The notes beneath the pieces were generated by a model that saw only the letters and a list, made by a program, of their open reading frames with translations, was not told the DNA's origin and did not search any database. Shown here piece by piece: positions 12,748 through 56,418 of a stretch of 64,000 bases of DNA. The stretch is taken from the NCBI GenBank assembly GCA_030605695.1, contig JAUWHX010000012.1:31483-95482 (forward strand). The letters run 5' to 3'. The DNA is from a bacterium (GTDB lineage Bacteria > Hydrothermota > UBA3073 > JACQXS01). The stretch's first letter is position 1. Every line of letters starts with the position of its first letter. Both the position numbers and the translations under genes were made by a program.

Positions 12748-12755
12748 TCTGTGAA

Positions 12756-37464: not shown

Positions 37465-37813
37465 AAAACTTGAATATTTTAAGAAACTCTTGCTTGCGAA
37501 AAAAAAGGAGCTTGAAGATGAATTGGGTGAACTTGAAGTGAAATTTAATGTCTCGCAACAAGACTCTTCCTCCGACCTCTCTTCTCATCCAACACATGTG
37601 GCTGATATTAGCGGAGATGCAGAAGACAGGGAATCTCGCTCTTGTTTAATCACTTCAATGGTTAAAGAACTTGCTCAGGTCAACCGTGCTATTAAAAAAA
37701 TATATTCTGACTCCTATGGGATTTGCGAAAAGTGTAACTCCAAAATATCGCCGAAAAGGCTTGAGGCAATCCCTTACGCAGAACTTTGTATTAAATGTGG
37801 AAAAAATTCTTAA
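37454..37813 (+). CDS. DksA/TraR-family C4 zinc-finger protein
   Basis: 119 aa. Coiled-coil N-terminus, then CEKCNSKISPKRLEAIPYAELCIKCG. Confidence 0.75.
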   Translation: MNAEKLEYFKKLLLAKKKELEDELGELEVKFNVSQQDSSSDLSSHPTHVADISGDAEDRESRSCLITSMVKELAQVNRAIKKIYSDSYGICEKCNSKISPKRLEAIPYAELCIKCGKNS

Positions 37814-38247
37814 CGCTTTTGCACGGCATTCTGCGAACCAGAATCCTCTGGATAGGTCTAATTGCCCTTGTTGCAGACCAATTAACGAAATTCTGGGTCT
37901 TCAAGACAAATGCGAATATGCCAGTTATTGGAGATTTTCTGAGAATCACGACCACTCAAAATCCTTATGGAATTTTCGGACTCCGTTATAAAGTCCCTAT
38001 TCTCCCAATTACCGGCCTTGCAATTTGTGCAATCTTTATAATATTATATAAATCTAAATTACTTCCGCTTTCTCTGATATTGGGAGGGGCGATTGGAAAC
38101 TTTATAGACCGTATAAGAATCGGCGCTGTTATAGACTGGATTGACATTGGGGTAAATAACACCAGATGGTATGTCTTTAATATTGCAGATGCAAGCATAA
38201 CTATTGGAATCCTCTGGCTCATTATCAAGGAAATAAAAAGGAAATAA
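37795..38247 (+). CDS. lspA: lipoprotein signal peptidase II
   Basis: ADQLTKFWV, GGAIGNFIDR, VFNIADASI. Confidence 0.9.
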   Translation: MWKKFLTLLHGILRTRILWIGLIALVADQLTKFWVFKTNANMPVIGDFLRITTTQNPYGIFGLRYKVPILPITGLAICAIFIILYKSKLLPLSLILGGAIGNFIDRIRIGAVIDWIDIGVNNTRWYVFNIADASITIGILWLIIKEIKRK

Positions 38248-38249
38248 TG

Positions 38250-38335
38250 CAAGAAACGAGATTTGTGTTGGTGGTTCGTGTTCGTGGTAGTCTTTTCTGT
38301 GACCACGATTCACGATTCACGAATTAGGAGGATAT
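38250..38335. repeat. heptamer word repeats in both orientations
   Basis: GGTTCGTGTTCGTGG ... CCACGATT CACGATT CACGAAT. Confidence 0.75.
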
Positions 38336-38336
38336 T

Positions 38337-40010
38337 ATGATGGTAATGCGTAAATTGAGAAAAAAGATGAGAGTATTTCTATGGTTTGCTATCGTTGTAT
38401 TTGTAGCTGGAATGACTGCTATGATGGTGGGTGGCGGAGGACGAAAACCTACTCCAACAGAACAAGGAAAAGTTGGCGAAATTTACATAAAACCAACTTC
38501 TGCTTGGCAGAAAATGAAGAGATGGACTCGCAAAGAGAAAATACCTCTTTCTTATCGGGACTACTCAAATCTCCTTGAACACTACAAGAAACAGGGAATC
38601 CCAGCTTGGAAATGCAAGAACCTTGCTTTCAGCACGCTCGTAGAAGAAGCTTTGGTAATTCAGGAGATGAAAAAGAGAGGAATTGAACTTACAGATGAAG
38701 AAGTTGTTGAGATCATTAAAAATAATCCACCACCTGAATTATTACAGGACACTCTTCTCCTTACAAACGGTGAGTTTGATTATAATAAATACCTTGCTAT
38801 TATATCTGACCCATCGAACACTAAATGGCTCCAGTCTTATGAACTCCTCATAAGAAGTCAGATGCCAAGAGAAATCCTATATCAAACTATAACATCAGCG
38901 GCAAGACCTACAACCATTGACCTTATTGAAGCTTATGCTCATTCCCACTTGAAACTTACACTGGAATACGCACTAATCCCGAACCCCGAACCCCGAACCC
39001 CGAACCCCGAGTTGTTGGAATACTACAATACTCATCAGGATGAATTTATGCTTCAAGAGGAGCCAATTATAAATTATGTTGTCTTTCAAGTTCCAATCTC
39101 CGCAGAAGATGAAGATTACACAAAAGAAATTGCTCAGGAGATTGCAGATTTTGCACAGGGAGGTGCTTCCCTTGACAGCTTGGCAATAGAATACGGCTGT
39201 CAAATCATACAAACTCAATCCCAAACACCGAACACCGAACACCGAATCACGAAAAAAGACGACGGATACCACATAACAAAAGAAGATAAAGAATTAATCT
39301 TACCTGTCCGACCGTCTGATGAAAGCTTTGTGCTCACAGAAGACAAAGCCTCCGATTTTATATCTGCCGCTAAATCCGATTTCCTCTCCGCCGCAAAATC
39401 CTATGATTTAAAAGTCCACAAAGGTGCGGGTTATGAACTGCCTATCCCTGCCGACCTCTCTTACATTAACCTTGCTGAAAAAGATAAAATTATAGGCCCC
39501 ATTGAAGGACTTAATTGCTTTTATGTCCTACATACTCTTGGAATACAAGAATCTCATACTCCGGAATTCTCTACCCTGTCCGATAAAGTGCGAGATAAAT
39601 ATCATCACTCCAAGGCACAAGAACTTGCCCAAAAACTACTTGACAAAACAAAGGGTAGGTTGAAGCCCTCGTTTCAACCTTTCAAAGAAGTCTTACAAGC
39701 TAACGGATTTCCCGTCGAAACCCGGGAATTTTCAGCAGGGGCGATTCACGAATCGCCCATCCAACAGGAAATTTTCCTCAAAGCTTCAAATCTTCCTGAG
39801 AACGAAACCGGAATAGTGTCAACCGAAGATGGCATTTATCTCGTTCATTGCTTAAAGCACGAAAAACCAATCCAAGAAGAAATTGAAAAAGCTATTCCCG
39901 AAGTGTATCCTGACTGGATAAAAGAGGAAAAGGAAATGATTTACGAAGAGTGGCTTGCGAACCTAAAAACATCTGTAGACATAAAAGACTACCGATACAA
40001 AATCCACTAA
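38337..40010 (+). CDS. membrane-anchored periplasmic chaperone of the PpiD/SurA N-terminal-domain type (no clear PPIase motif seen)
   Basis: 557 aa. AGGAGG upstream. N-terminal TM (VFLWFAIVVFVAGMTAMMV) and PpiD-like architecture. Family call is tentative. Confidence 0.55.
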   Translation: MMVMRKLRKKMRVFLWFAIVVFVAGMTAMMVGGGGRKPTPTEQGKVGEIYIKPTSAWQKMKRWTRKEKIPLSYRDYSNLLEHYKKQGIPAWKCKNLAFSTLVEEALVIQEMKKRGIELTDEEVVEIIKNNPPPELLQDTLLLTNGEFDYNKYLAIISDPSNTKWLQSYELLIRSQMPREILYQTITSAARPTTIDLIEAYAHSHLKLTLEYALIPNPEPRTPNPELLEYYNTHQDEFMLQEEPIINYVVFQVPISAEDEDYTKEIAQEIADFAQGGASLDSLAIEYGCQIIQTQSQTPNTEHRITKKDDGYHITKEDKELILPVRPSDESFVLTEDKASDFISAAKSDFLSAAKSYDLKVHKGAGYELPIPADLSYINLAEKDKIIGPIEGLNCFYVLHTLGIQESHTPEFSTLSDKVRDKYHHSKAQELAQKLLDKTKGRLKPSFQPFKEVLQANGFPVETREFSAGAIHESPIQQEIFLKASNLPENETGIVSTEDGIYLVHCLKHEKPIQEEIEKAIPEVYPDWIKEEKEMIYEEWLANLKTSVDIKDYRYKIH

Positions 40011-40190
40011 TCCCGATCAGGATAGCATTAAACTCTTAAAGCTTTAAACCCTTAATCTGTAATCTACGTTTATCCGCGTCCATCTGTGTTGTCTGCGGTT
40101 CCACTTTCCCCTAAACCCCTGAACCCCTCTTTCTTTGTGCACTTTGTGGTTTAAAATATTATATCTGTAAAATCTGTGGTTGCGGTTTTT
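40011..40190. repeat. tandem word repeats (reverse-complement versions of the 1017-1327 words)
   Basis: AAACTCTTAAAGCTTTAAACCCTTAATCTGTAATCTAC, ATCTGTGTTGTCTGCGGTT, CCCCTAAACCCCTGAACCCCTC, CTTTGTGCACTTTGTGG, ATCTGTAAAATCTGTGGTTGCGG. Confidence 0.8.
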
Positions 40191-40192
40191 TC

Positions 40193-40220
40193 TTGACTTT
40201 ATTTTGAAGCATCTTAAAAT
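40193..40220 (+). promoter_or_regulatory. sigma70-like promoter of serS
   Basis: TTGACT (40193-40198), 16 nt, TAAAAT (40215-40220). Confidence 0.45.
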
Positions 40221-40270
40221 CTATGCCAACACGCAAACACTGGTAATCGGATTAAACGGATTTAACTGAT

Positions 40271-41578
40271 ATGTTTGATATAAAATTTACAAGAGAGAAT
40301 ATAGAGCTCATTAATCGTGGCATCAAAGAAAAGGGCGAAAGTGTTGACATCAATAAATTTATTAAACTTGATGAGAAAAGAAGAAAACTCATAGGAGAAA
40401 TAGATGATATAAGGAGAGAGAAGAAAAAACTCTCTCAAGATGTAGCTCAACTTAAAAGAGATGGCAAGGATGCCTCTAATCTGATTAGCGATTCAAAATC
40501 CCTGTCAGAGAAGGAGAAGAATTTGGATAGTGAGCTACAAGATGTTAATTCGGGTATTCAGGAGATAATGGCAGGCATACCGAATTTAGCACACCCAGAT
40601 ATCCCTCGCGACAAGGAAACAGTGGTGAAGGAGTATGGAGAATCAAGTGTAGGGGTGTTAAATTTAACGCCCCCACGAACTGCAGATGAACTTTGTGATT
40701 CCCTTGAGATACTTGATTTTAGCAGAGGAAGTAAGATAGCCGGCACAAACTTTCCTTGTTATCTGGGACTTGGAGCAAGACTTGAGCGTGCACTTATTAA
40801 CTTTATGCTTGATTTGCATATAAAACAGGGATATACAGAAGTATTTCCGCCATTCCTTGTAAATCGGAAATCGATGTTCGGGACAGCTCAACTGCCAAAG
40901 CTTGAGGACGATATGTATTTTATCCCCCGGGAGGAACTTTTTCTAAATCCGACCGCAGAAGTTCCACTTGTAAATCTGCATCAGGACGAGACTTTGAAAG
41001 CAGATAGCTTACCGATTAAGTATGTTGGCTATGCCGCCAGCTTTAGAAGAGAAGCAGGTTCCTATGGCAAGGAAACACGCGGATTAAGGAGAGTTCATCA
41101 ATTTAATAAGGTGGAACTAATAAAATTCACATCCCCTGAGAATTCTTACGAGGAACTTGAGTCAATGCTGAAGGATGCAGAGGAGGTTCTAAAATTGCTT
41201 GGGCTCAGGTATCGTGTATTGCTTCTTCCCGTGAATGACCTCAGTTTTGCATCAAGCAAGACTTATGATATAGAAGTCTGGGCTCCTGCAAGTCAGGAAT
41301 GGCTTGAAGTATCTTCTGTAAGTAATTGTGAAAGCTTTCAAGCACGGCGAGCAGGAATTAGATTTAAAAAGTCGGCAGTCCACAGTCCACAGTCCACAGC
41401 TGACAGTCGGCAGTCGGTGGGCTCTAAAACTTCATTTGTCCATATTTTAAATGGTTCAGGAGTGGCAACCCCACGCACATTTATTGCCCTTATAGAGCAG
41501 TATCAAGAAAAAGACGGGACCATCAAGGTTCCAGATGTCCTCATCCCGTATATGGGCGGGATAGATAAAATCAAGTAA
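40271..41578 (+). CDS. serS: serine--tRNA ligase
   Basis: 435 aa. N-terminal coiled-coil arm. Class II motifs [24 protein letters not shown] and [18 protein letters not shown]. Confidence 0.95.
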
Positions 41579-42291
41579 TGGAGAGAAAGGATAAGCGAGC
41601 ATCAGATGAGCTGAGACCAGTAAAAATAGAGAAGGATTATCTTCGGCATCCCGAAGGAAGCTGTCTTATTGAGCTTGGCAGGACTCAAGTTATATGCTCG
41701 GCTACTGTTGAAGAAAGGGTCCCTTTTTTTCTGAGAGACAAGCGGTGCGGGTGGGTAACTGCGGAATATGGAATGCTTCCACGAAGCACAAAAGAGAGAA
41801 TTCAGAGGAACCGCACATCCGGCAGGATTTATGAGATTCAGAGAATTATTGGCAGGGTTCTTCGGAATGTAACAGACCTTGATTTTATGCCGGGGTTCAC
41901 GATTGCAATAGATTGTGATGTTATTCAAGCAGACGGCGGGACACGAACTGCCGCAATAACTGGCGGATATGTGGCTCTTTACGATGCCTGCCAATATATG
42001 TTGTCTCAAGGGTTAATCGACCATTCGCCAATCCGGGAAGCAGTGGCTGCTGTGAGTTGCGGCATAGTTAATGGAACTCCAATTCTTGACCTTGCTTACG
42101 AGGAAGACTCGCGTGCAGATGTAGATATGAATGTCTCTATGACAGAGTCTGGCAAGTTTGTTGAAATTCAAGGAACTGGAGAAGGAAACGCTTTTACTCG
42201 CGAGGAACTTGACGCAATGCTAAAACTCGCAGACAAAGGAATAAACGAATTAATCTCAGCCCAGAGGGAAGCACTTTTTTTGAAGCTATAG
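41578..42291 (+). CDS. rph: ribonuclease PH
   Basis: [48 protein letters not shown]. Its ATG shares 1 nt with the serS stop. Confidence 0.95.
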
Positions 42292-42295
42292 AGAG

Positions 42296-42688
42296 ATGAA
42301 AGAATATACTTCTGCTGGACTAAAGGCTAAACTCCCAAAGATTGAATGCTTCCCCAGTCAATTCAGAGATTATGAAATTACACATATCATTCCTGAGTTC
42401 ACTTCACTGTGCCCAAAAACAGGTCTCCCGGACTTTGGAACCATAACCATAAAATACATTCCAGACAAATTATGCATAGAGCTTAAGTCCCTTAAGCTAT
42501 ATATAGGAGCTTATCGGAATCTCGGCATCTTTTACGAGAACTCAGTGAATCAAATCTTGAAAGATATAATTAAAGCATCCAAGCCCATTAAAGCAGAAAT
42601 AACAGGTGAATTTAACCCCCGTGGCGGAATCAAGTCCGTTGTCCGAGCAACTTACCCAGATAAAAAAATCTTGCCCATTTTACAGTAG
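42296..42688 (+). CDS. queF: NADPH-dependent 7-cyano-7-deazaguanine reductase (unimodular type)
   Basis: EFTSLCPKTGLPDFGTITIKYIPDKLCIELKSLKLY, catalytic Cys and QueF motif region. Confidence 0.9.
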   Translation: MKEYTSAGLKAKLPKIECFPSQFRDYEITHIIPEFTSLCPKTGLPDFGTITIKYIPDKLCIELKSLKLYIGAYRNLGIFYENSVNQILKDIIKASKPIKAEITGEFNPRGGIKSVVRATYPDKKILPILQ

Positions 42689-42734
42689 TAACAAGAGCTT
42701 ACTTAAATACTTTTCGGTTTTTTAAATTTTTTCC

Positions 42735-42762
42735 TTGACAGATTTAAATTTGGCAGTATTTT
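42735..42762 (+). promoter_or_regulatory. sigma70-like promoter of the TetR gene
   Basis: TTGACA (42735-42740), 16 nt, TATTTT (42757-42762). Confidence 0.45.
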
Positions 42763-42766
42763 ATTA

Positions 42767-42793
42767 TTAGACTATTAAACTATTTTAGTCTAA
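42767..42793. promoter_or_regulatory. palindromic operator O1 (TTAGACTA-N11-TAGTCTAA)
   Basis: Perfect 8-bp arms at 42767-42774 and 42786-42793. It lies immediately downstream of the -10 of the TetR promoter. Confidence 0.6.
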
Positions 42794-42813
42794 ATGTCTA
42801 ATAAAATGAGATA

Positions 42814-43389
42814 ATGAAAGAAGATAGAAAAGAGGGTATTATTGAGACTGCACGAGACTTATTTGCACGATTCGGTTTCAAGAAGACTACCGTTGACGAG
42901 ATTGCCAGAGCTCTTCACATGGGTAAAAGCACAATCTACTATTACTTTGAAACCAAAGAGGATATTTTTAAGGCGGTGATAGAGAGAGAGAGTAAATTCT
43001 TGGCTATGAAAATCAAGAAAGCTGTAGACAAAGTAACTTCTCCAGTGGAAAAACTGCGGGTATTTATACTAACAAGGATGCAGTGTCTCAGGCAACTGGC
43101 TAATTTTTACAGTGTACTTAAAGATGAATATTTAGAGCATTACTCATTTATTGAGAAAGTAAGGAAGAGGGACTTTGAAGAAGAAATTGAAACGATAAAA
43201 ACCTTTCTAAAAGAAGGAGTGGAAAAAGGTATTTTTGCTATCAAAAACCCACGATTGACTTCCTTTGCAATTGTTACTGCCTTAAAAGGATTAGAATATC
43301 CCCTGACAATAGGAACTAAAACGACAGACATCAAAAGAAATGTTAATATCTTGTTAGAAACCTTGTTTAACGGGGTAAAAAAGAGATAA
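42814..43389 (+). CDS. TetR/AcrR-family transcriptional regulator
   Basis: 191 aa. N-terminal HTH ARDLFARFGFKKTTVDEIARALHMGKSTIYYYFETKEDIF. Confidence 0.85.
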   Translation: MKEDRKEGIIETARDLFARFGFKKTTVDEIARALHMGKSTIYYYFETKEDIFKAVIERESKFLAMKIKKAVDKVTSPVEKLRVFILTRMQCLRQLANFYSVLKDEYLEHYSFIEKVRKRDFEEEIETIKTFLKEGVEKGIFAIKNPRLTSFAIVTALKGLEYPLTIGTKTTDIKRNVNILLETLFNGVKKR

Positions 43390-43395
43390 ATTTTT

Positions 43396-43432
43396 TTGTC
43401 AAAATTAGACCAAAAAACTAATATGGTCTAAT
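43396..43432 (+). promoter_or_regulatory. promoter of the radical-SAM operon overlapped by operator O2 (ATTAGACCA-N11-TGGTCTAAT)
   Basis: TTGTCA (43396-43401), 17 nt, TAATAT (43419-43424). The 9-bp inverted-repeat arms at 43404-43412 and 43424-43432 have the same half-site (TTAGAC) and the same 11-nt spacing as O1. Confidence 0.6.
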
Positions 43433-43452
43433 AATCTATGGGGAGGTGTGTT

Positions 43453-44886
43453 ATGGTTGAGGTGAAGGATTTGGGTGCAAAAGCACTTAAGGGAGTTGCG
43501 CGTACCGCGGTTCGGAGCAGTACAATTAGAAAGCTTGCACTCAAAAAGATTGAGAGTGAGATGTATAAATCGATTACCTTGAAAAGAGCGGATACTTATC
43601 CTCCCAAGCAGATACAAGATGTGTTCTATATGGGAGATGCTTTGCTTCACTCGGCGGATAGGTCTATGTCTTGTAATATCTCTTCCGGATGTAGGAATGC
43701 CATTATAAATATTTTAGCAAAGGATATACTTACGGGTGGAGATATTAAGACGAAGGAAAAATTTGAGAGTGAATTTGGATTTATACCTCCGCTATTTCTT
43801 ACTATAAGTCCAAGTAATGCCTGTAATCTGAGGTGTAAGGGTTGTTATGCTAATGCCGGAGTCCAAAGTGTTGATAAACTTACTTTTGATGTGTTTGACC
43901 GAATTATACGAGAGACAAGAGAACTTTGGGGTTCTCGTTTTACAGTTATATCAGGAGGAGAGCCACTTCTTTATAAAGGAATTTTTGAGATAGCAGAAAA
44001 ACACAAAGATACATTCTTTTTGATGTATACAAATGGGACTCTTATTGATGAGAAGGTTGCAAGGAGACTTGCGGAAGCAGGTAATATTACTCCGGCTATT
44101 TCTGTTGAAGGATTTGAAAAGGAGACAGATGCACGAAGAGGAAAAGGAGTTTATAAGCGTATTCGGAAGGCAATGCAAAACTTGAAAGATGCTGGAGTTC
44201 CTTTTGGTTTATCTATCACCGCAACAAAACAAAATGTAGATATAATAACAAGCGATGAGTTTTATGATTTCTATTTTGAAAAAGAACCTAAAGCGACTTA
44301 TGGCTGGATATTTCATTATATGCCAATAGGCAGAAGTTATACAATTGAGCTTATGCCGACTCCGGAACAAAGACTTTTTATGTGGGAGAAGAATAGGGAA
44401 ATGGTGAGAAAACGAAAGATTCTTATTGCGGACTTCTGGAATGATGGGGTCGTCTCAGATGGATGCATATCAGCAGGTAGGACAGGGGGCTATTTTTACA
44501 TAAATTGGAATGGAGATTGTACTCCTTGTGTTTTTCAACCTTACGCTGTTCACAATATCAATAGGGTTTATAAGAATGGTGGCAATCTGAATACCGTTCT
44601 GAATTCTGAGTTCTTCAAGGCAATACGAAAGTGGCAAAATGAATATGGTTATGGGCAACCGAAGAATAAAAAAGAAAATCTCTTAAGACCTTGTGCTATT
44701 AGAGACCACTATGGGATGTATCATAAACTTTTAGAATGTTACAAACCTTATCCTATCGATAAGAGTGCCCGAGATGCCTTGAATGATGAGGAATACCGCA
44801 AGAAACTCACAGCATACGGAGAAAAAATAGGAGAATTAACAAAGGACATCTGGGAGAAGGAGTATCTGCAAAGGGAGGGAATTTGA
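43453..44886 (+). CDS. radical SAM enzyme with C-terminal auxiliary-cluster cysteines (SPASM/twitch-like)
   Basis: Start at the second ATG, with GGAGG 7 nt upstream. CX3CX2C = SNACNLRCKGCYAN. GGEPLL. C-terminal GCISAGRTGGYFYINWNGDCTPCVF (CX17CX2C), later RPCAIRDHY and LLECY. About 115 aa precede the SAM cluster. Confidence 0.85.
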   Translation: MVEVKDLGAKALKGVARTAVRSSTIRKLALKKIESEMYKSITLKRADTYPPKQIQDVFYMGDALLHSADRSMSCNISSGCRNAIINILAKDILTGGDIKTKEKFESEFGFIPPLFLTISPSNACNLRCKGCYANAGVQSVDKLTFDVFDRIIRETRELWGSRFTVISGGEPLLYKGIFEIAEKHKDTFFLMYTNGTLIDEKVARRLAEAGNITPAISVEGFEKETDARRGKGVYKRIRKAMQNLKDAGVPFGLSITATKQNVDIITSDEFYDFYFEKEPKATYGWIFHYMPIGRSYTIELMPTPEQRLFMWEKNREMVRKRKILIADFWNDGVVSDGCISAGRTGGYFYINWNGDCTPCVFQPYAVHNINRVYKNGGNLNTVLNSEFFKAIRKWQNEYGYGQPKNKKENLLRPCAIRDHYGMYHKLLECYKPYPIDKSARDALNDEEYRKKLTAYGEKIGELTKDIWEKEYLQREGI

Positions 44887-45122
44887 CATTATTTGAGAGA
44901 GCAAAGAAGATTATTCTCAAATACACAAATATACCTGAAGAACGGATTACACCGGAAGCATCTTTTACCGATGATTTGGGAGTGGACTCATCCGATATTA
45001 CTGGACTCATTATGAATATTGAGGACGAGTTCGGCATCGATATCATTGATACTGTGGAAAGACTCAGGACAGTGGAAGATGTGGTAGAGCATCTCCGTGC
45101 AAGGTTGCCAGGAAATGAATAA
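44883..45122 (+). CDS. acyl carrier protein (copy 1)
   Basis: 79 aa. FTDDLGVDSSDITGLIMNIEDEFGIDI contains the DS phosphopantetheine site. TTG start overlaps the radical-SAM stop as TTGA (44883-44886). Confidence 0.8.
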   Translation: MTLFERAKKIILKYTNIPEERITPEASFTDDLGVDSSDITGLIMNIEDEFGIDIIDTVERLRTVEDVVEHLRARLPGNE

Positions 45123-45152
45123 TCTTAAGTCAAATAATGGGAGGAACAAAAG

Positions 45153-48098
45153 ATGAGAAGATTTGCTAATCTGGTCATTAAATATCGGGTGATTATTATT
45201 GTTTCGGTGATTGGTTTAACTGGATTTTTTGGCTACCAGTTGAAGAATCTGAAGATAAATAGTGATATCCTCACTTACTTGCCCCAAGACGACCCTTTGG
45301 TAGTTCTATTTAACGAAGTTGGTGATAAGTTTGGCGGTAGTTCATTGGCTATGGTGGCGTTGGAAACCGACAATGTGTTCAACTATGAAACATTGAATAG
45401 AGTTAACGAAATCACTGAGAAATTCAAACAGATGGACGGAGTTTCTCAGGTGATGAGCTTAACAGATATTCTGGATATTAAAAAGACTGAATGGGGTTTG
45501 GAGGTTGGCAAGCTGATTGATAGACGTAATATCCCTGAAAGCCCGGATGAGCTGGAAAAACTGATGGAATATACTCTTTCTAAAGATATGTATAGAGGCA
45601 ACCTGGTTTCCGAAGATGGCAAGATAACGGTTATTATTGCACGTCTTGTAGAAGATATTGATAAAATAGAAGATGGGAAGCAAATGAAAGAACTTGTTAA
45701 AGAGACTCAGGGTGAGGAGAAGATATATTATGGTGGAATGCCATTCCAGATGATTTTCTTGGCAGACATCATTATGAAAGATTTGGGTAAGCTTATCCCA
45801 TTGGTTATTTTATTAGTGATGGCTACTCTCTTTTTCAGTTTTAGAAGTTTTCGGGGAATCTTTTTGCCACTGTCTACTGCTTTGATGAGTACAGTCTGGG
45901 CTTTGGGAATAATGAGTTTGATGAAAATTCCCTTGACCATTGCCGCAGATGCGATTCCAGTTTTGCTTATTGCCATTGGCAGTGCTTATGGAATCCACAT
46001 GCTTTCCAAATACAATGAGGATATTAGATTGGGAGATAATAAGATTCAAGGGATTAAAGATGCCTTGAGCGAAGTAGGGATTCCTATATTTTTAGCTGGT
46101 ATTACCACATTGATTGGCTTTTTGGCATTCTTGTCTTCCGACTTAAGTCTAATTCGGGAACTTGGTATTTTCACTGCTATTGGTGTGATGTTCGCTATGC
46201 TTATCTCTGTAACCTTCCTACCTGCAGTGCTTTCTCTATTAAAAGTCGGGAAGGTCAAACTGAACCATAAAGGAGTAGAAAACAATCTATTAACAAGACT
46301 AATGGACAGATTGGGAGCGTTTGTTCTTCGTCGCGAAAAACTCATCGTGGGAATGGGTATCGCTATTATTTTGGCTTCTTTGGTCGCTATTCCCAGACTA
46401 AAGCGAGAAGTCAATATGATTGACTACTTTGAAAAAGACAGCGAGATTAGGCAGACTGAAGAGATGATGGAAGAGAAACTTGGTGGGTCTATTCCAATTC
46501 AGCTTTTGGTTAAAGGAGATTTAAAGGACCCATTCGTTTTGAAAGAGATGCTCAATTTTGAGAAGTATTTAGAAACCCAACCCAATGTGAATGACCCTCA
46601 ATCTATTGCCGACTTAATTTGTGAAATAAACGGGGTAATGAATGACCATTATACCATTCCCGAAACGAGAGAAGGAGTAGCTAATCTTTGGTTGTTCATT
46701 GAGGGAAACGAAGTATTGAATCAATTGATAAATAGTCAAGCAGACGAAGGTTTAATTCAAGCAAAATTAGGTACAGTGAGCACGGGAGAAGTCAGGACTT
46801 TAGTTGATGCAATTGAGGATTATCTGAAGAATGAATTGAAAACGGATTTGCTTAAAGTCCAAATCTCTCTTGTTTCTTCGGATATGGCTGAGATATTGAG
46901 AATGAAACGAGTAGAGGAGATTCTATCAAAAATAAAACGGGATATTAAGATGAGAAATACCGAGTTTCAGGTTTCTGATACTACTCTGACAAAAGTTATC
47001 CTTGCGGGAATGCAGAGTGGACAGGAAGAAATCGACGAGATTTCAATAAAGAGATTGGAAAAAAGAATCACCGATTACTTCAAAAGTGACGAAGCAGATA
47101 TTCAGATAGAGGAGGTATCACCTCAAACGGAAAGAATTATTGCTAAAGTCGTCGCTGATGTCCTCAAACAATTGAAGATAGATGAGATTGATGAAAAAGA
47201 GATTATCAGCATCTTGAAGCGAGATATTTCTAAAAAGAGTTATGCTGGAGAGCCTGAAGTTTTGGGATATGCTGGTGAATCTATTATGGCAATCATAGCT
47301 GATTTTAGAAAATGGGCAAAGGTTAATAATCTCGTGCAGGGTTTGAACCCACTTCTTCCTGAAAATTTAAGGGATGACAGGGACTTCCTAAAAGACTTAC
47401 GAGATGATTGTTGGGAAATAAACGAAGACTGGCTTGCCGTAGAGAGTTCAAAATATGCTGACGCCTTCAATTCCGAAGATAGAGTGAGCTTAACTGCCAA
47501 ACAAACAGGGATGCCTATAATCTATATGGACATAGATAAAAAAACAATGAAGAGCCAGGCATTAAGTCTTTCCATTGCTATGTTTTTGGTTTTTCTTCTT
47601 TTGTCTTTCCAACTGAAATCCCTGATTGGTGGGTTAATCTCAATATCGCCTATCATTCTTACTATTCTCATCAATTTCATTCTGATGGCGGTTCTGAATA
47701 TTCCGTTAGACATAGTCACGGTTATGATTGGCAGTGTGGCTGTCGGGATTGGTATTGACTATACCATTCACTTTATCAACAGATTTAAGTCTGAGATGGG
47801 AAAGGAAAAGACAATTTTGGAAGCTTTGGACAAAACATTGGAAACGACAGGGAAGGCAATTCTCATCAATGCCATTTCTGTAATGATGGGATTTCTGGTT
47901 CTGGTTTTGGGAAGCATAGTTCCTATGCAGCGATTTGGTTATCTGATAGCATTTACGATGATAACCAGTGCTTTAGGGGCTATTACATTTTTGCCAGCCT
48001 TGATTCTTGTCACTAAGGCTGGGTTTGTTGGTGATTTTGGTCGTCTTGCCGGTAAACTGAAGAAGCGGACGACCGGATTTAACAATTCAGGGAGATGA
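45153..48098 (+). CDS. MMPL / RND-superfamily (HAE3-like) exporter
   Basis: 981 aa. N-terminal TM, periplasmic domain, 5-TM bundle (about aa 200-370), second large periplasmic domain, second 5-TM bundle (about aa 800-960). SD GGGAGG upstream. Confidence 0.85.
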   Translation: MRRFANLVIKYRVIIIVSVIGLTGFFGYQLKNLKINSDILTYLPQDDPLVVLFNEVGDKFGGSSLAMVALETDNVFNYETLNRVNEITEKFKQMDGVSQVMSLTDILDIKKTEWGLEVGKLIDRRNIPESPDELEKLMEYTLSKDMYRGNLVSEDGKITVIIARLVEDIDKIEDGKQMKELVKETQGEEKIYYGGMPFQMIFLADIIMKDLGKLIPLVILLVMATLFFSFRSFRGIFLPLSTALMSTVWALGIMSLMKIPLTIAADAIPVLLIAIGSAYGIHMLSKYNEDIRLGDNKIQGIKDALSEVGIPIFLAGITTLIGFLAFLSSDLSLIRELGIFTAIGVMFAMLISVTFLPAVLSLLKVGKVKLNHKGVENNLLTRLMDRLGAFVLRREKLIVGMGIAIILASLVAIPRLKREVNMIDYFEKDSEIRQTEEMMEEKLGGSIPIQLLVKGDLKDPFVLKEMLNFEKYLETQPNVNDPQSIADLICEINGVMNDHYTIPETREGVANLWLFIEGNEVLNQLINSQADEGLIQAKLGTVSTGEVRTLVDAIEDYLKNELKTDLLKVQISLVSSDMAEILRMKRVEEILSKIKRDIKMRNTEFQVSDTTLTKVILAGMQSGQEEIDEISIKRLEKRITDYFKSDEADIQIEEVSPQTERIIAKVVADVLKQLKIDEIDEKEIISILKRDISKKSYAGEPEVLGYAGESIMAIIADFRKWAKVNNLVQGLNPLLPENLRDDRDFLKDLRDDCWEINEDWLAVESSKYADAFNSEDRVSLTAKQTGMPIIYMDIDKKTMKSQALSLSIAMFLVFLLLSFQLKSLIGGLISISPIILTILINFILMAVLNIPLDIVTVMIGSVAVGIGIDYTIHFINRFKSEMGKEKTILEALDKTLETTGKAILINAISVMMGFLVLVLGSIVPMQRFGYLIAFTMITSALGAITFLPALILVTKAGFVGDFGRLAGKLKKRTTGFNNSGR

Positions 48099-48142
48099 GT
48101 TTAAGAAAATCAAGAAACCGCTGTTTATGAGGTAACCAAAAC

Positions 48143-50257
48143 ATGTCAAGAAAAATTTATGCTTTCGTTTTTCTACTAAGTTTTGTAGAATATGCTTTTT
48201 GCCAGAATATTCTGGTTAATCCAGGATTTGAGAACGGAGAGGAAAGCTGGATAGATTTTTCCACTAATCCGGAACATACCGATTTATCAATAGATTATTC
48301 TGTTAGCCATAGTGGGAATGCCAGCGCGAAGATTTATATCAATGATACTTTGGAAGTTAGCGCTGGCTGGTTACAAGGAGTAAATATAATAGCAGGACAT
48401 CACTATCTTTTAGAAGGTTTTATCAAAACTGATAATGTGCAGGGAATGGTCTTTCCGTATCTCCATTTTAGCGATCAATCAGATTCACTTCTTTATGGAA
48501 TGTTACTTATGCCTTTAAATAGAACAACAAATTGGAAATTAACTCAGTCACGATTTATCGCTCCAGAAAACAGCGTAGGATTGGTTTTATTTCTACTCTT
48601 TGTTGGCGAGAAAGGAACGGGATGGTTTGATGACCTCAGTTTAATTGACCTCACAGATACAACCGCTCATCAATTTTCAATCAATTTCAGCGAAACTATC
48701 GGTGAAATCAAACCGTTTTTGGCAACAAACTGTGGGCCAGTGAGACCAGGAAATCCTAATGATCTTACTTCAAAATTCCAAGAGATTGGAATTGATTTTG
48801 TTAGAACTCATGATTACTATGGTCCTTGTGATATACATACTATATTTCCTGATACATCAAGAGATCCCCTTGATTCTACTGCATATTATTTTGCTTCTAC
48901 AGATTCCGTGATAGAACCAATAATCAATGCCGGATGTAATATCCTTTTCAGACTTGGGGAGAGTTGGGAATACGAGCCAATATATAATGTTCCTCCTGCG
49001 GATTTTGAAAAATGGGCACAAGTATGTGTGCAAATAATAAAACACTATAATGATGGGTGGAATAATGGTTATCATTACAATATTGAATATTGGGAGATAT
49101 GGAACGAACCTAATCTTCAGCATCATTGGGATGGCACAGTAGAACAGTACTGCCATCTGTATCATATTACGGCAAATAGAATAAAAGAATACAATCCATC
49201 GTTAAAGGTTGGTGGACCTGCAATAGCATATATCTACAATGCATCATTTATCGAAACTTTTCTTGACTCAGTTGTGACTTACAATATACCTCTGGACTTT
49301 TTTTCCTATCATTTCTATAATTTTGCCAACCCTTTTGATTATTTATATGCTGATAGCGTTATGAAGAAATATCTTGCAGATGCAGGTTTGTCATACGTAG
49401 AAAGGTTTAATACCGAATGGAATACTTATGTATATGATGAGCAGAACTCAATAGATTGGGGGCGGGATGATGCCTTAAATGCCGCATTAACTGTTTCAGC
49501 GATTTCGTATCTTCAAGATTCTGATTTATCAAAAGCGTTTCGTTATCGCACAGATGAATACCTTTTTGGATTATTCAGAGATAATGGAGATTATTCATAT
49601 TCAGGATTGGCGCTTAAGGCAATAGGTGAATTCAGAAAGACTTCTGTCCGTCTCTACACTACAGGAGGTGATAGTATGGGAACGACTATTTTAGCTGGAA
49701 AGTCGCAAACAGATGATAAAATAAATCTATTAATCTCGGATAACTCATCTATTGCAAATGGGTATGAGTTTGTCGTTAATGGATTATTACAAGACAAAAT
49801 TTATAAATATCAGACATATCGCATTGATAACACAATGGAATGGGAATTTTTACAGGAAGGAAATATTACAGATGCTCAAAACATTATAAAGTGTACAGGT
49901 CAATCGCCCTTTGTGGATATAATTTCTATTTCTCAAACCTCTGGTATTGCTGAAGATAATATTAAGTCTATTGTCAATTCTATATATTTATATCCAAATC
50001 CATTCTGCTCAAAAACAAGTTTAGAGTTTAGAGTTCAGGGTTCAGAGTTAAAAGACTTGCAACTCCAGATTTATGATTTAGCAGGTAGACTCGTCCGAAC
50101 ATTGCCAGTTACACAATCACCTAATAACACTATTACCAAAGTAACTTGGGATGCAAAGGATGACTTGGGTAAAAGTGTGTCATCGGGAATCTATTTTTAT
50201 AAATTGAAAGTGGATGATAAGTTTTCACAAACCAAAAAACTGCTACTCTTGAGGTAG
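48143..50257 (+). CDS. secreted clan GH-A-type glycoside-hydrolase-like protein with N-terminal CBM-like domain and T9SS C-terminal domain
   Basis: 704 aa. Signal peptide. NILVNPGFENGEESW (CBM4/9-like jelly roll start). YWEIWNEPN (clan A acid/base NEP motif). C-terminus LYPNPF...LQLQIYDLAGRLV...GIYFYKL...KKLLLLR. Confidence 0.6.
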   Translation: MSRKIYAFVFLLSFVEYAFCQNILVNPGFENGEESWIDFSTNPEHTDLSIDYSVSHSGNASAKIYINDTLEVSAGWLQGVNIIAGHHYLLEGFIKTDNVQGMVFPYLHFSDQSDSLLYGMLLMPLNRTTNWKLTQSRFIAPENSVGLVLFLLFVGEKGTGWFDDLSLIDLTDTTAHQFSINFSETIGEIKPFLATNCGPVRPGNPNDLTSKFQEIGIDFVRTHDYYGPCDIHTIFPDTSRDPLDSTAYYFASTDSVIEPIINAGCNILFRLGESWEYEPIYNVPPADFEKWAQVCVQIIKHYNDGWNNGYHYNIEYWEIWNEPNLQHHWDGTVEQYCHLYHITANRIKEYNPSLKVGGPAIAYIYNASFIETFLDSVVTYNIPLDFFSYHFYNFANPFDYLYADSVMKKYLADAGLSYVERFNTEWNTYVYDEQNSIDWGRDDALNAALTVSAISYLQDSDLSKAFRYRTDEYLFGLFRDNGDYSYSGLALKAIGEFRKTSVRLYTTGGDSMGTTILAGKSQTDDKINLLISDNSSIANGYEFVVNGLLQDKIYKYQTYRIDNTMEWEFLQEGNITDAQNIIKCTGQSPFVDIISISQTSGIAEDNIKSIVNSIYLYPNPFCSKTSLEFRVQGSELKDLQLQIYDLAGRLVRTLPVTQSPNNTITKVTWDAKDDLGKSVSSGIYFYKLKVDDKFSQTKKLLLLR

Positions 50258-50274
50258 CGAAAGGAGATGGTAGT

Positions 50275-51009
50275 ATGAAAGGGCTTTTGGAAATAGGTGT
50301 TGTTCTACTTCTGCCGATTATTCTTTTGGCAGAGACAGGCAACGAAATCTTGAAGAAGGTAGAGGATGCTATGAATGCTCCGAATGATAGAATGGCAAGT
50401 ATGAAGCTCACGCTGATAGATAAGGATGGGGACTCCAAGGTTCGTGAGATAAAAATGTGGCAATTAGGAAAAGAGAAACGACTTATAAAATTCCTTTCTC
50501 CTGCTGATGTAAAAGGAGTTGGATTCTTAGTGCTCTCAGATAACGAGATGTACCTCTATATGCCTGCATTCAAAAAGATAAGACGTATTGCTTCTCATGT
50601 GAAGAATCAAAGTTTTATGGGCACGGATTTTTCTTACAACGATATCGGCAAGAGTCAATATACTAAAGACTTTACCGCTGAGACTAAAGAGGGAACAGAG
50701 AAAGAGTATGTATTGGAACTTACACCCAGGCCAAAATCAGATATTGATTATGCTAAACTTGTTATGCGGGTGGATAAAGCACATTATATTCCGAGCAAGG
50801 TGGAATACTACAACGAGAAAGGGAAAGTTCTCAAGGTTATGGAAAATGAAGATACAGAAAAAATAGATGGCTACTGGACTCCCAAGAAAGTGACAATGAA
50901 GAATCTAAAAACAGAGCATAAGACTGTTATGGAACTTACAGTTGTTAAGCACGACTCTGGGCTTAAAAAAGATATGTTCACTAAACGAATGCTCAAAAGA
51001 GCGGAATAA
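50275..51009 (+). CDS. LolA-like outer-membrane lipoprotein-sorting protein
   Basis: 244 aa. Signal peptide. KLTLIDKDGDSKVREIKMWQ, LIKFLSPADVKGVGFLVL, MYLYMPAFKKIRRI, SFMGTDFSYNDI. This is the pattern I associate with the LolA_like (PF17131-type) family found next to MMPL/HAE3 exporters. Confidence 0.7.
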   Translation: MKGLLEIGVVLLLPIILLAETGNEILKKVEDAMNAPNDRMASMKLTLIDKDGDSKVREIKMWQLGKEKRLIKFLSPADVKGVGFLVLSDNEMYLYMPAFKKIRRIASHVKNQSFMGTDFSYNDIGKSQYTKDFTAETKEGTEKEYVLELTPRPKSDIDYAKLVMRVDKAHYIPSKVEYYNEKGKVLKVMENEDTEKIDGYWTPKKVTMKNLKTEHKTVMELTVVKHDSGLKKDMFTKRMLKRAE

Positions 51010-51085
51010 GACTTAAGAGTTGAGGGTCGAGAGTTTTGGAACAGTATAATCCATACTTCTCTGCTCTTTTAAATAGAGGTGTATA

Positions 51086-52435
51086 ATGACAAAGATTTCT
51101 TTCTGTGTCATCCCTACATTATTAGGGGTGAGTATTGTAAGTAGTCCCAATCTCTGTATGGGTGAAGTGGATATTTCTGGTAATCTCAAACTGGACAAGC
51201 GTTTTCTCATCACAGATAGTGTGAGAATTGCAGATTATCCATATCACGAACTTAATCTAAGACTGCAATCAAAGCCTTCCAAGAATCTATCTCTCTATAC
51301 CAGTATGAAATTTAGGCTATGGGACCAAAATCTTGCAAGTAGTTCAGCGGAGTTGACTGAATTTTCAACTAACAATCCTTATGAACTGTTTCTATGGGAA
51401 GCTTATGCTGACCTTTACAGTTTTATCTTTGATGAATTAGACCTGCGGATTGGCAAACAGCGTATAGCTTGGGGAACAGCAGATAAACTCAACCCGACGG
51501 ATAATCTAAATCCTGATGATTTCTCCGACCCTCTGAATTTCGGGGAAAAGGTGCCTACCGAAGCTGTAAATGCTACCTATAACTTAACCGATGAATATAA
51601 TTTAAGTGCTGTGTGCCTCCCATCGCTCAAGCCTATTTTGTTGCCCAGAGGCGAGTTTCCTTTATTGGGTGATGCAAATGCTCTTCCGTTACCTCCGGGG
51701 ACAAATCTTGTAGAGTCAATGGAGCATCTTACCTTTCCTGACAGGAAGCCTGAAAACTCTATGTATGCCATAAAATTATCTGGAAAGGTCGAGGAGTACG
51801 ACTTTTCACTATCCTATTTTTGGGGTTATGATGATGTGCCTATTGCAAATAAGCTTGTCGTAACTCCTGTTGATACTTTGGGAAATGTGAAACTTGACAC
51901 CTATTTAGGATTTCCAGAAATCCGTGCTGCTGGCTTTGACTGTGCTGGAGAACTTTTTTCCATAGGTCTCTGGGGAGAAGCAGCGGTATTCTTGCCTGAA
52001 GAAGTAAAGATGAGAATAGAAATGCCAACAGGAGTTCAGGATACAACCATTCTATCTGATGAGTCTTATGTGAAGTTCACTGTTGGTGGAGATTATACTT
52101 CTGAGACCGGAATCTATATCAATGCTCAATGGATGCATGGCTTCTTTACTGAGCGGGGAAAAGATAATCTTGAGGACTACATTATGGCAGGTATTGAGCA
52201 GAAATTCAAGAACGATGAGATTAAGGTCGGTGTAGCTGGTGGTTTAGAGATAAAAGATGTTGAGGATTTAGAAGAAAACTACGGCACTGTGATTATCCCT
52301 GAAGTATCTTATGCTCCAACCGATAATGTAAAGCTCCTGTTTGGAGCATTCTTTTTGGATGGAAAGTTAGGGACCCTCTTTGGCGGATGGAAGGAGCAGA
52401 ACCAACTTTACTTCAAGACAGAAGTAAGCTTCTAA
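51086..52435 (+). CDS. outer-membrane beta-barrel protein (DUF1302-like)
   Basis: 449 aa. Signal peptide. LDLRIGKQRIAWGTADKLNPTDNLNPDD. Alternating beta-strand pattern. C-terminal ...YFKTEVSF (terminal Phe). Confidence 0.55.
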   Translation: MTKISFCVIPTLLGVSIVSSPNLCMGEVDISGNLKLDKRFLITDSVRIADYPYHELNLRLQSKPSKNLSLYTSMKFRLWDQNLASSSAELTEFSTNNPYELFLWEAYADLYSFIFDELDLRIGKQRIAWGTADKLNPTDNLNPDDFSDPLNFGEKVPTEAVNATYNLTDEYNLSAVCLPSLKPILLPRGEFPLLGDANALPLPPGTNLVESMEHLTFPDRKPENSMYAIKLSGKVEEYDFSLSYFWGYDDVPIANKLVVTPVDTLGNVKLDTYLGFPEIRAAGFDCAGELFSIGLWGEAAVFLPEEVKMRIEMPTGVQDTTILSDESYVKFTVGGDYTSETGIYINAQWMHGFFTERGKDNLEDYIMAGIEQKFKNDEIKVGVAGGLEIKDVEDLEENYGTVIIPEVSYAPTDNVKLLFGAFFLDGKLGTLFGGWKEQNQLYFKTEVSF

Positions 52436-52458
52436 AGTAACGAATTGAAGTTAGGATA

Positions 52459-53577
52459 ATGTGGAAGAAACAGGTTATTTTTTCAATTCTATGCTTAACA
52501 TTTTTCTCAAGGGGGTTTGCTGGCACTGAAAAAGCTCCTCTTCTTGAGGGTGCCTATTGGGGGCTGGAAACAGGAGCCAGACCTTTCGCAATGGGAGGGG
52601 CATTTGTTGCTGTCGGTGGCGACGCTAGTTGTATTTACTGGAATCCAGCTGGATTGGGATTACTTCCTCAATCAACAGCAATGTTCGGCTTCAGCGATAT
52701 GAAGGATATAGAGGTTGAGAATATGGAGGTCGTAAATCTCTTTAGAACAGCGACAGGACTGAGTGGTAAGAGATTGTCATTTGTTGCATTTTCAGAAAAT
52801 CAGGGAGCTTTAAGCTGGTGTCCACTATCAAGTGTATGTAGAAACAATATGTATTTTCAGAACATCAATGCGGATGGAGATACGATTGAGAGATGGACAG
52901 ACCTAGAATACAGCATAAACGAATTTGTTCTATCAATGACCACGCTTATGGGAGCCACCGACCAAGAAATCCAGGGAATGCCTTGTATTCTGGGGATGAA
53001 TGTCAAATACCTGAATGGCAGGATAGGAGTTGCAGAAAAAAGTAGAAAAAATGGAGTGTGGGAAGAACCAAATATAAATCTGGATACTGGTAATGGGTAT
53101 AGCATAGACCTTGGTTTCTTATATCCGAAAAAGTGGATTGCTCTTGGTGCCTCAGCACAGAATGTTCTGGCAAAACTATACTGGCACGATTATAGTGCAG
53201 ACCGAATAAATGCGAATTTGCGAGGCGGTATAGCTATAAAACTTTTTAATAGTCTCCTTTTAGCTTCAGATGTTGAAAAAAGGTGGGATGAGAAAGCCCC
53301 TTACATTTATCATATTGGAGTAGAGAAAACATTCATACGAGGGAAAAAGCAAAGAAGCAATTTTGGCACCAAAGATAAGCAATCATTGAAATACGGAGAC
53401 CTCTCAATCCGACTCGGTACTTATGGTACAGATTTATTGGAGGAAGAGAAAATCTACACAGGGGGAATTGGTTACAGTTATTCTAATTATAGGGTAGATA
53501 CATCTGTGTCAGGAAAATATGAAGGGAAGGATTCCAAGCTCTCATTCCGGCTGACAATCTCAGTGCCATTTGAATAA
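52459..53577 (+). CDS. outer-membrane beta-barrel protein (PorV/FadL/TraF-like N-terminal motif)
   Basis: 372 aa. Signal peptide. GARPFAMGGAFVAVGGDASCIYWNPAGLG. Beta-rich. Confidence 0.5.
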   Translation: MWKKQVIFSILCLTFFSRGFAGTEKAPLLEGAYWGLETGARPFAMGGAFVAVGGDASCIYWNPAGLGLLPQSTAMFGFSDMKDIEVENMEVVNLFRTATGLSGKRLSFVAFSENQGALSWCPLSSVCRNNMYFQNINADGDTIERWTDLEYSINEFVLSMTTLMGATDQEIQGMPCILGMNVKYLNGRIGVAEKSRKNGVWEEPNINLDTGNGYSIDLGFLYPKKWIALGASAQNVLAKLYWHDYSADRINANLRGGIAIKLFNSLLLASDVEKRWDEKAPYIYHIGVEKTFIRGKKQRSNFGTKDKQSLKYGDLSIRLGTYGTDLLEEEKIYTGGIGYSYSNYRVDTSVSGKYEGKDSKLSFRLTISVPFE

Positions 53578-53653
53578 TATGTAGTATCTTTAAATGATGG
53601 TTACAATATTTGAGTAAATGAGCAGGGAAAAATATAAGAAAATAGGAGGAGAG

Positions 53654-54058
53654 ATGAAAAAGTTTTACATAATTTTGGTCGGGCTTTTGGTATTTGCTGG
53701 CTGCAAGGATGTGCAAGAGGAAATTGAGCAGTGCACCGTGTCTGGAAAGGTTACAAATGGAGGACAGGCTTTAGCCAATACTTATGTCCTGCTCTTGAAA
53801 TCAAAGGAGGGCGATATTAACTTAAGCAACGGCTGGAAGGCAGGAGACGATGGGACTTATAAGATAATAAGAGTTGACCCTTCTGTCTATTATGTAACAG
53901 TAATAGCAGATACTAACGGTAATATTGCCTATGAACCTGATAAGGATTTGATAGGATGGTATGACCCAGATGATGATCTTGAGCCTGATTCAATTGTAGT
54001 AAACGAGGGAGACGACCTCACAGGCATAGACATTGACACACTATATATTGCACCATAG
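53654..54058 (+). CDS. small lipoprotein with carboxypeptidase-regulatory-like fold (tentative)
   Basis: Start at MKKFYIILVGLLVFAGCKD (lipobox FAGC), with AGGAGG upstream. CTVSGKVTNGGQALANTYVLL. Confidence 0.5.
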   Translation: MKKFYIILVGLLVFAGCKDVQEEIEQCTVSGKVTNGGQALANTYVLLLKSKEGDINLSNGWKAGDDGTYKIIRVDPSVYYVTVIADTNGNIAYEPDKDLIGWYDPDDDLEPDSIVVNEGDDLTGIDIDTLYIAP

Positions 54059-54078
54059 ATATTGAAAAAAGGAGGTGC

Positions 54079-54180
54079 ATGGGTATATTTGAGAAAATAG
54101 TTTCAGCGATAGTAATCGCTTTTGAATGGCTCGGCAGAAAGATACAAGAAATCATTGACATTATGCTGTTCAGGAGATAA
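54079..54180 (+). CDS. 33-codon small ORF with strong Shine-Dalgarno (possible small membrane protein or leader)
   Basis: AAAGGAGGTGC then ATG at 54079. MGIFEKIVSAIVIAFEWLGRKIQEIIDIMLFRR*. Below the track size cutoff. Confidence 0.3.
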   Translation: MGIFEKIVSAIVIAFEWLGRKIQEIIDIMLFRR

Positions 54181-54793: not shown

Positions 54794-54827
54794 CAAAAGA
54801 CATCTGGGAGAAGGAGTATTTGCAAAG
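54786..54827 (+). pseudogene. relic of a radical-SAM gene 3' end
   Basis: AGAATTAACAAAAGACATCTGGGAGAAGGAGTATTTGCAAAG matches 44832-44873, the last codons of the radical-SAM gene, with 2 substitutions in 42 nt. Confidence 0.7.
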
Positions 54828-54840
54828 TGGAAGATAAGAA

Positions 54841-56408: not shown

Positions 56409-56418
56409 CATAGAAGTT

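Follow-up and report, generated by a model that had tools for sequence, protein, structure and literature searches.

Locus and principal features

The window is the whole 64,000-nucleotide (nt) stretch of contig JAUWHX010000012.1 analyzed here, from a bacterium of the WOR-3 lineage. It contains a gene for a radical S-adenosylmethionine (SAM) protein, here called rSAM, whose 3' end overlaps the gene for an acyl carrier protein (ACP), ACP1. The protein probably, though by no means certainly, belongs to the Mss (membrane-spanning lipid synthase) family, coupling the acyl tails of membrane lipids. The rSAM gene is the second of 14 plus-strand genes that form an array at 42814-57394, from TetR to ACP2. 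The two overlapping genes are as follows.

43453-44886, + strand: rSAM, an Mss-family homologue of 477 amino acids (aa), in which a helical N-domain is followed by a CX3CX2C core and then by a twitch-like C-domain bearing the conserved C343, C364, C419 and D423
44883-45122, + strand: ACP1, 79 aa, with a TTG start that is codon 3 of the ancestral open reading frame (ORF), the ancestral ATG having been lost at the junction

Labels of the form L001, L006 or L050 denote homologous rSAM loci, 80 family loci having been surveyed from species-representative genomes, and labels of the form P0204, P0277 or P0150 denote protein representatives of the rSAM superfamily. Residue numbers of rSAM follow a 482-aa ORF and are converted to the 477-aa protein by subtracting 5. 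The closest relative of the window locus is L006, on a contig of the WOR-3 metagenome-assembled genome (MAG) RS_17_16; its rSAM protein is 97% identical and the DNA identity between the two is 89-97% across 36376-44873.

The rSAM gene and protein

The rSAM ORF spans 43438-44886, with an ATG at 43453 (MVEVKD...). The start at 43453, already given in a preliminary description of this locus, is right because a Shine-Dalgarno sequence (GGGGAGG) lies 6 nt upstream of it and the starts of homologues agree with it. Pfam identifies Radical_SAM (7e-25) and a weak SPASM match of 25 bits. The AlphaFold2 model, built from 93 homologues, has a predicted local distance difference test (pLDDT) score of 91.8, which makes it a confident one, and divides into an N-domain of five helices (residues 14-113), the core and a C-domain. 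The N-domain consists of helices throughout, with no beta-strands and no conserved Cys. The preliminary description had also reported CNLRCKGC (CX3CX2C) behind an N-terminal extension and a C-terminal CX17CX2C with two further Cys, from which it proposed one auxiliary Fe-S cluster. Both motifs are present, the first as C129, C133 and C136 after a helical domain of about 120 aa, the second as C343-X17-C361-X2-C364, with C419 and C433 as the additional residues.

Conservation was counted across 111 superfamily sequences. C129, C133, C136, C343, C364, C419 and D423 are each kept in 108-110 of them, including the Clostridium Mss homologue described below; the position of C361 holds V, I or L in almost every relative and C433 lacks conservation across the family, so that only three C-terminal Cys (C343, C364 and C419) are family features. 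The spacing C343-X15-G359-X4-C364 matches the CX9-15GX4C hairpin of the SPASM/twitch domain. The second-cluster motif CX2CX5CX3C...C of a full SPASM domain (7-8 Cys) is absent from rSAM, which has the hairpin half and C419 only. With three conserved C-terminal Cys and the second-cluster motif missing, the single auxiliary cluster proposed earlier is upheld as a site, and the best reading of these residues is one twitch-like cluster with three Cys ligands and a fourth position that would be open or filled by Asp. Three superfamily members, P0153, P0253 (Anaerolineae) and P0255, have no CX3CX2C at all but retain the Asp and all three C-terminal Cys, and may be relatives that no longer act as radical SAM enzymes.

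Family assignment

The family search returned more than 5000 full-length matches at about 50% identity from many anaerobic phyla. The taxa include WOR-3, Stahlbacteria, KSB1, Latescibacterota, Aminicenantes, Nitrospirota and Zixibacteria, as well as Omnitrophota, Planctomycetota, Calditrichota, Ignavibacteria, Anaerolineae, Elusimicrobia and Armatimonadota. An exhaustive search for rSAM relatives gave 479 clusters (50% identity) at E<=1e-30. Representative P0204 matches the window rSAM at E 2.4e-66 and falls in the same 90% cluster as P0277, which is WP_040330614.1 of Clostridium ihumii, the protein given as the Mss homologue of that species in Supplementary Table 3 of PMC13274423. Published thresholds for Mss homology are E<=1e-50 with identity>=30% (PMC13159169) and E<=1e-30 with >30% identity (PMC13274423). 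In BLASTP the window rSAM is 33% identical to P0277 over 457 aa (E 3e-79), with the N-, core and C-domains covered, and 42% identical to a Moorella humiferrea protein (E 9e-96). P0277 and the Moorella protein are 38% identical to each other, so that the distance of the window clade from either type does not exceed the distance between the two.

The clade of the Moorella-type representative P0150 includes Moorella, Thermosediminibacterales, Thermoanaerobacterales and Atribacterota, and other clades of the rSAM family include Humimicrobiaceae and Geothermincolia; these are taxa named for Mss (PMC13159169, PMC11868695). The phylum list of the Mss homologues of PMC13159169 coincides with that of the window rSAM family. 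The supplement of the Black Sea paper contains no WOR-3 or KSB1 entries. The placement of rSAM in this large family is shown by the present analysis. The preliminary description had suggested an enzyme of the lipid-tail type and named three candidates; the type is supported, and among the candidates it is the Thermotoga-type Mss family that fits, not Tes or HpnH.

Against solved structures the similarity of rSAM is confined to the common core (SkfB 2e-14, anSME 6.5e-7, GDGT-MAS 1.9e-6), and the top Foldseek matches of the model are SuiB, anSME and SkfB at a template-modeling (TM) score of ~0.5. Tes/GDGT-MAS was rejected, the similarity to 7tol covering only core residues ~118-255 and the E-value falling off from 1.9e-6 with the single sequence to 1.9e-4 with the family profile; the rubredoxin-like iron site and the N-terminal cluster of that enzyme are absent from rSAM. 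HpnH (TIGR03470) scores 42.7 bits against a cut-off of 225. Among the NCBIfam equivalogs NirJ2 scores best, with 94 bits for a cut-off of 500; NirJ, MftC, anSME and every other NCBIfam equivalog likewise leave rSAM far below cut-off. BlsE gives E 1.8e-4 only.

Several points weigh against the assignment to Mss. Experimentally confirmed Mss enzymes are Tmari_0825 of Thermotoga maritima and WP_129545148.1 of Thermoanaerobacter ethanolicus (Sahonero-Canavesi et al. 2022, PMC13159169), and the suggested link to them runs through a published homologue and taxon matches and not through direct alignment with either; a protein search from P0150 had no named Thermoanaerobacter ethanolicus or Thermotoga entry among its matches. 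The Firmicute homologues are no more than 33-42% identical to rSAM. Each WOR-3 genome has 2-3 rSAM paralogues, so that chemistry or substrate may have diverged. In Foldseek, GDGT-MAS ranks only 36 (TM 0.39), behind SuiB, anSME and SkfB, whereas Mss models are said to share the catalytic architecture of Tes (PMC13274423). The published Mss model does not account for the recurrence of two dedicated ACPs in WOR-3 operons. We know of no lipid data for WOR-3.

Some of these points would also suit a different radical reaction on the lipid tail by the same superfamily, such as anaerobic desaturation, cyclization or another cross-link, in place of diabolic-acid-type coupling. So would the tandem duplicate in L001 among the several paralogues per genome, the star-like tree with its many deep clades, an operon with ACPs, an LpxL-like gene and an exporter as opposed to the stand-alone Clostridium gene, and the pairing of the Nitrospirota members with a B12-radical SAM enzyme. 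We consider such a reaction unlikely, while still a serious possibility: all clades keep the six Cys, the Asp and the three-domain layout, and no family member with a different proven activity was found in the literature.

Operon content

The genes that follow ACP1 in the array are listed below.

45153-48098, + strand: MMPL/HAE3-type RND lipid exporter, HpnN-like (HpnN model 152 bits, below cut-off)
48143-50257, + strand: GH39-like protein with a type IX secretion system (T9SS) C-terminal sorting domain, missing in the L001 version of the cluster
50275-51009, + strand: LolA-like periplasmic lipid carrier (Pfam LolA_like 4e-59)
51086-52435, + strand: DUF1302-like protein, probable outer-membrane component, found with the MMPL and LolA-like genes in L001, L002, L020 and L034
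52459-53577, + strand: PorV/PorQ-like outer-membrane protein
53618-54058, + strand: small lipoprotein-like protein with a weak CarboxypepD_reg fold (Pfam), conserved in L001 and L002
54122-54793, + strand: PlsC-type acyltransferase 1 (PlsC1)
54841-55497, + strand: polytopic membrane protein of 218 aa with no family assigned (unk218), directly 3' of rSAM in L006
55494-56408, + strand: acyltransferase of the LpxL / PIM-acyltransferase-like type
56524-57165, + strand: PlsC-type acyltransferase 2 (PlsC2), with an ACP always next in WOR-3 relatives
57152-57394, + strand: ACP2, 80 aa, with a DSL motif (Pfam 6e-13), overlapping the end of PlsC2 by 14 nt

Genes for ketosynthase, reductase and dehydratase are absent from 42814-57394, and no patatin, phasin, ABC1 or PhaR genes lie within the window. 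No paper describing this combination of genes was found in the searchable literature.

The rSAM/ACP1 junction

The stop codon of rSAM (TGA, 44884-44886) and the start codon of ACP1 (TTG, 44883-44885) have TTGA in common, as the preliminary description had observed, and a ribosome-binding site for ACP1 is plausible at 44873-44879 (GGGAGGG). The product is recognized by Pfam PP-binding (1e-11) and by an NCBIfam ACP subfamily model (74.4 bits, cut-off 71). The modifiable serine in question there is present, DS(S) aligning with Ser36 of Escherichia coli AcpP in the DSL motif. The overlap is a recent, strain-specific junction of a block rearrangement and not a conserved partnership, as is seen from the following features.

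44832-44873, + strand: copy A of a direct repeat of 42 nt; this copy is the true rSAM 3' end, and the rearrangement break falls between 44873 and 44879
54786-54837, + strand: relic of the old rSAM 3' end just 5' of the membrane-protein gene, containing copy B of the 42-nt repeat (54786-54827, 95% identical)
45091-45125, + strand: 35-nt repeat at the 3' ends of ACP1 and ACP2, the partner copy being at 57363-57397 (91% identical)

Copy B runs on into ...KEYLQSGR*, which is the C-terminus of rSAM in L006; the window rSAM now ends ...KEYLQREGI*. Up to 44873, L006 and the window are collinear; L006 then continues in the order 54786-55466 (the 218-aa membrane protein), 56414-57334 (PlsC2 and ACP2), 44879-45141 (ACP1) and 57329 onward. 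In both L006 and L001, ACP1 has a start of its own, ATG AAA TTG ACA, directly after the stop codon of ACP2. The stop codon of PlsC1 lies within the rSAM relic (54786-54793), and the rearrangement therefore also reshaped the end of the PlsC1 gene.

No two of the four WOR-3 genomes compared have these genes in the same order. The window has TetR-rSAM-ACP1-MMPL..., L006 has TetR-rSAM-membrane protein-PlsC2-ACP2-ACP1, with two genes between rSAM and the ACPs, and L001 has TetR-rSAM-rSAM-PlsC2-ACP2-ACP1-MMPL.... In L002 the order is TetR-PlsC2-ACP-(208 nt)-rSAM-LpxL-like...MMPL..., which places the ACP upstream of rSAM. The constant pair is therefore PlsC2-ACP and not rSAM-ACP. Among the 80 family loci an ACP lies near rSAM in only three (L001, L002 and L006) and in none of the other 77; L050 has a housekeeping-type AcpP ~5.5 kb from rSAM on the opposite strand. 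Among gene junctions in bacterial operons the 4-nt stop/start overlap is the most frequent kind, and the present operon has a second one (unk218/LpxL-like, 55494-55497) besides the 14-nt overlap of PlsC2 and ACP2. Seen in one genome only, such an overlap is poor ground for concluding that two genes work together.

It had been proposed that rSAM is translationally coupled to an ACP of its own, made in stoichiometric amounts with it, and that the substrate is an acyl chain tethered to ACP1. The good ribosome-binding site at the overlap, the intact phosphopantetheine serine and the presence of ACPs in the same operon in four WOR-3 genomes (the window, L001, L002 and L006) speak for this model, which is nonetheless improbable. 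The coupling is contradicted by a junction found only in this strain, by the 42-nt relic and by the ancestral ACP1 with its own ATG after ACP2. The tethered substrate finds no support in the family loci, in the ACPs that follow PlsC2, or in the published experiment in which mss alone yielded diacids in anaerobic E. coli with no partner ACP (PMC13159169).

Regulator and neighborhoods across phyla

The regulator gene and the two palindromes beside it are as follows.

42767-42793, strand not applicable: palindrome TTAGACT-N12-AGTCTAA upstream of tetR, candidate TetR operator 1
42814-43389, + strand: TetR-family regulator (Pfam TetR_N 9e-17; the best NCBIfam model is Bacillus-type FadR, below cut-off)
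43405-43431, strand not applicable: palindrome TTAGACC-N12-GGTCTAA between tetR and rSAM, over a promoter-like -10, candidate TetR operator 2

A scan for promoters and terminators gave a promoter-like site at 43396-43424 and otherwise nothing decisive. TetR adjoins rSAM in 21 of the 80 family loci, and the palindrome T[AC]GAC[CT]-N12-[AG]GTC[TG]A occurs in 8 of these 21, against a background of 0.09 per kb. Loci of WOR-3, Aminicenantes and KSB1 have the motif of 42767-42793 in the corresponding position, and the palindrome is likely to be a TetR operator common to these several phyla. In these loci, as in the window, it flanks tetR on both sides; it was seen in L001, L006, L011, L014, L018, L020, L043 and L055.

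The neighbors of rSAM that recur in several phyla are TetR, a patatin-like phospholipase, PlsC, an ABC1 kinase, a phasin-like protein and sometimes MMPL, LolA-like and DUF1302 proteins. Some or all of them are present in KSB1 (L020), Calditrichaceae (L033, L080), Aminicenantes (L011, L021) and Sedimentisphaerales (L049). Taken with the TetR palindromes, these lipid genes suggest a neighborhood of lipid remodeling and export under a lipid-type repressor. That rSAM is instead a peptide- or protein-modifying SPASM/twitch maturase, of the type acting on ribosomally synthesized and post-translationally modified peptides (RiPPs) or of the anSME type, with the lipid genes as chance neighbors, is scarcely credible: its best solved-structure matches are indeed SkfB, anSME, SuiB and CteB, but these cover mainly the common core, the all-helical N-domain is not a peptide-recognition (RRE) fold, no conserved precursor-peptide gene or short ORF occurs among the neighbors, all NCBIfam maturase models stay far below cut-off, and the lipid-gene neighbors recur across phyla.

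The rSAM tree contains a WOR-3-specific subclade. A sister subclade within WOR-3 (L003, L004 and L030) has an array of PhaR-like, patatin, rSAM, GT4 glycosyltransferase and patatin genes, with no ACP or exporter. The tandem duplicate of rSAM in L001 spans 10004-12900, and L033 has two copies (7604-11458). The MAG of L006 holds a second rSAM paralogue of 51% identity beside an aminotransferase gene (L024, 3290-4723, listed with the duplicates). In Nitrospirota a gene for a B12-binding radical SAM protein, HpnJ-like at 170 bits (cut-off 578), begins 8-12 nt after the Mss-like gene (L029 11392-12786, L046 4634-5998, L048 10895-12265 and L053 3866-4716).

Proposed function

For the preferred reading of rSAM as an Mss-family enzyme, we infer the chemistry, the substrate and the role in export as follows. 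By analogy with Mss and Tes, the CX3CX2C cluster would cleave SAM, and the 5'-deoxyadenosyl radical would take H from a fatty-acyl tail, at its terminal or sub-terminal carbon. The one auxiliary cluster, on C343, C364 and C419, perhaps with D423, would hold or oxidize the resulting radical; a second tail would then be activated and the two joined to a diabolic-acid-type membrane-spanning lipid. The substrate most likely consists of acyl chains that membrane glycerolipids already carry as esters, rather than of acyl-ACP1.

In this WOR-3 lineage rSAM would be the first gene of a TetR-controlled operon. The two ACPs would serve the acyltransferases (two of PlsC type and one of LpxL type), the MMPL/LolA-like/DUF1302-like route may move the product across the envelope, and together the genes of the operon plausibly make a special envelope lipid, cross-link it and export it. 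A more specific scheme, for WOR-3 and some KSB1 and Calditrichota relatives, is offered as speculation and is doubtful as a whole: in a dedicated pathway switched by TetR, dedicated ACPs and three acyltransferases would assemble the lipid, rSAM would cross-link its tails, and the MMPL/LolA-like/DUF1302-like route would deliver the bolaform product to the outer membrane.

Branched membrane-spanning lipids, such as brGDGTs (branched glycerol dialkyl glycerol tetraethers) and their diacid cores, are common climate proxies, and their anaerobic producers are debated. If correct, the scheme would be the first link of radical tail coupling with outer-membrane lipid export in diderm anaerobes, and it would put forward a definite set of genes for sources of branched tetraether-type lipids among the candidate phyla. 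As a class the enzyme is already familiar, since published lists include Mss homologues from candidate phyla. What the locus contributes is a context that no paper of the searchable literature was found to describe, namely a conserved candidate TetR operator, lipid-remodeling neighbors and, in WOR-3, ACPs, acyltransferases and envelope export, and the locus thereby gives testable ideas on the regulation, building and transport of membrane-spanning lipids.

Other features of the window

A second, unrelated radical SAM protein of 800 aa (Radical_SAM_N2, Radical_SAM and DUF2344) is encoded at 61300-63702. C-terminal sorting domains of the T9SS type are present in three window proteins (15309-16574, 25256-26704 and 48143-50257); together with the PorV-like protein at 52459-53577, they indicate that WOR-3 appears to use a T9SS-type system. 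A trehalose gene set on the minus strand at 31762-34503 comprises a TreT-type synthase, a trehalose phosphatase and a DUF5752 protein. A PEMT/ICMT-like methyltransferase is encoded at 30828-31499, and a ThyX-like protein of 500 aa at 29329-30831 has two Thy1 matches and is ~2x the usual length.

Comparison with known systems

With the twitch/SPASM radical SAM enzymes (SkfB, anSME, SuiB, BtrN and MoaA) rSAM shares the CX9-15GX4C hairpin, and these enzymes are its best core matches in structure and sequence. Unlike them it has neither CX2CX5CX3C nor a peptide-recognition domain, and its context is one of lipid and not of peptide genes.

Tes/GDGT-MAS (PDB 7TOL/7TOM) is likewise a radical SAM enzyme of lipid tails with an N-terminal extension of ~110 aa, and the coupling logic proposed for the two is the same. 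The C-terminal cluster of Tes has three Cys and Met as ligands and is the proposed holder of the substrate radical; Tes also has a rubredoxin-like Fe domain and an N-terminal [4Fe-4S] cluster with three Cys and His (PMC13459092). The window rSAM would resemble it in a C-terminal cluster on three Cys and a non-Cys ligand, perhaps Asp in place of Met. It differs in lacking the rubredoxin-like domain and the N-terminal [4Fe-4S] cluster, and the similarity is one of the core only.

Aryl-polyene clusters hold the same kinds of parts as the operon (MMPL, LolA-like, acyltransferases and ACPs). The operon is like the aryl-polyene and hopanoid export modules (LolA-like with MMPL; HpnN) in its MMPL/HAE3 pump, LolA-like carrier, PlsC/LpxL-type acyltransferases and two ACPs. 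It is unlike them in having no NCBIfam equivalog at cut-off and no ketosynthase, reductase or dehydratase gene, with rSAM present instead.

The closest correspondence is with Mss: a radical SAM protein of about 460-490 aa, anaerobic hosts, six conserved Cys in common, a matching phylum distribution, and homology over the full length to the published homologue WP_040330614.1 and to the Moorella-type proteins. The gene neighborhood of the Clostridium homologue is uninformative. In contrast to the Mss set, the window rSAM falls in a separate clade (WOR-3, KSB1, Aminicenantes, Nitrospirota and others), and unlike the stand-alone Clostridium gene it stands in an operon, apparently under TetR control, that also encodes ACPs, acyltransferases and an MMPL exporter.

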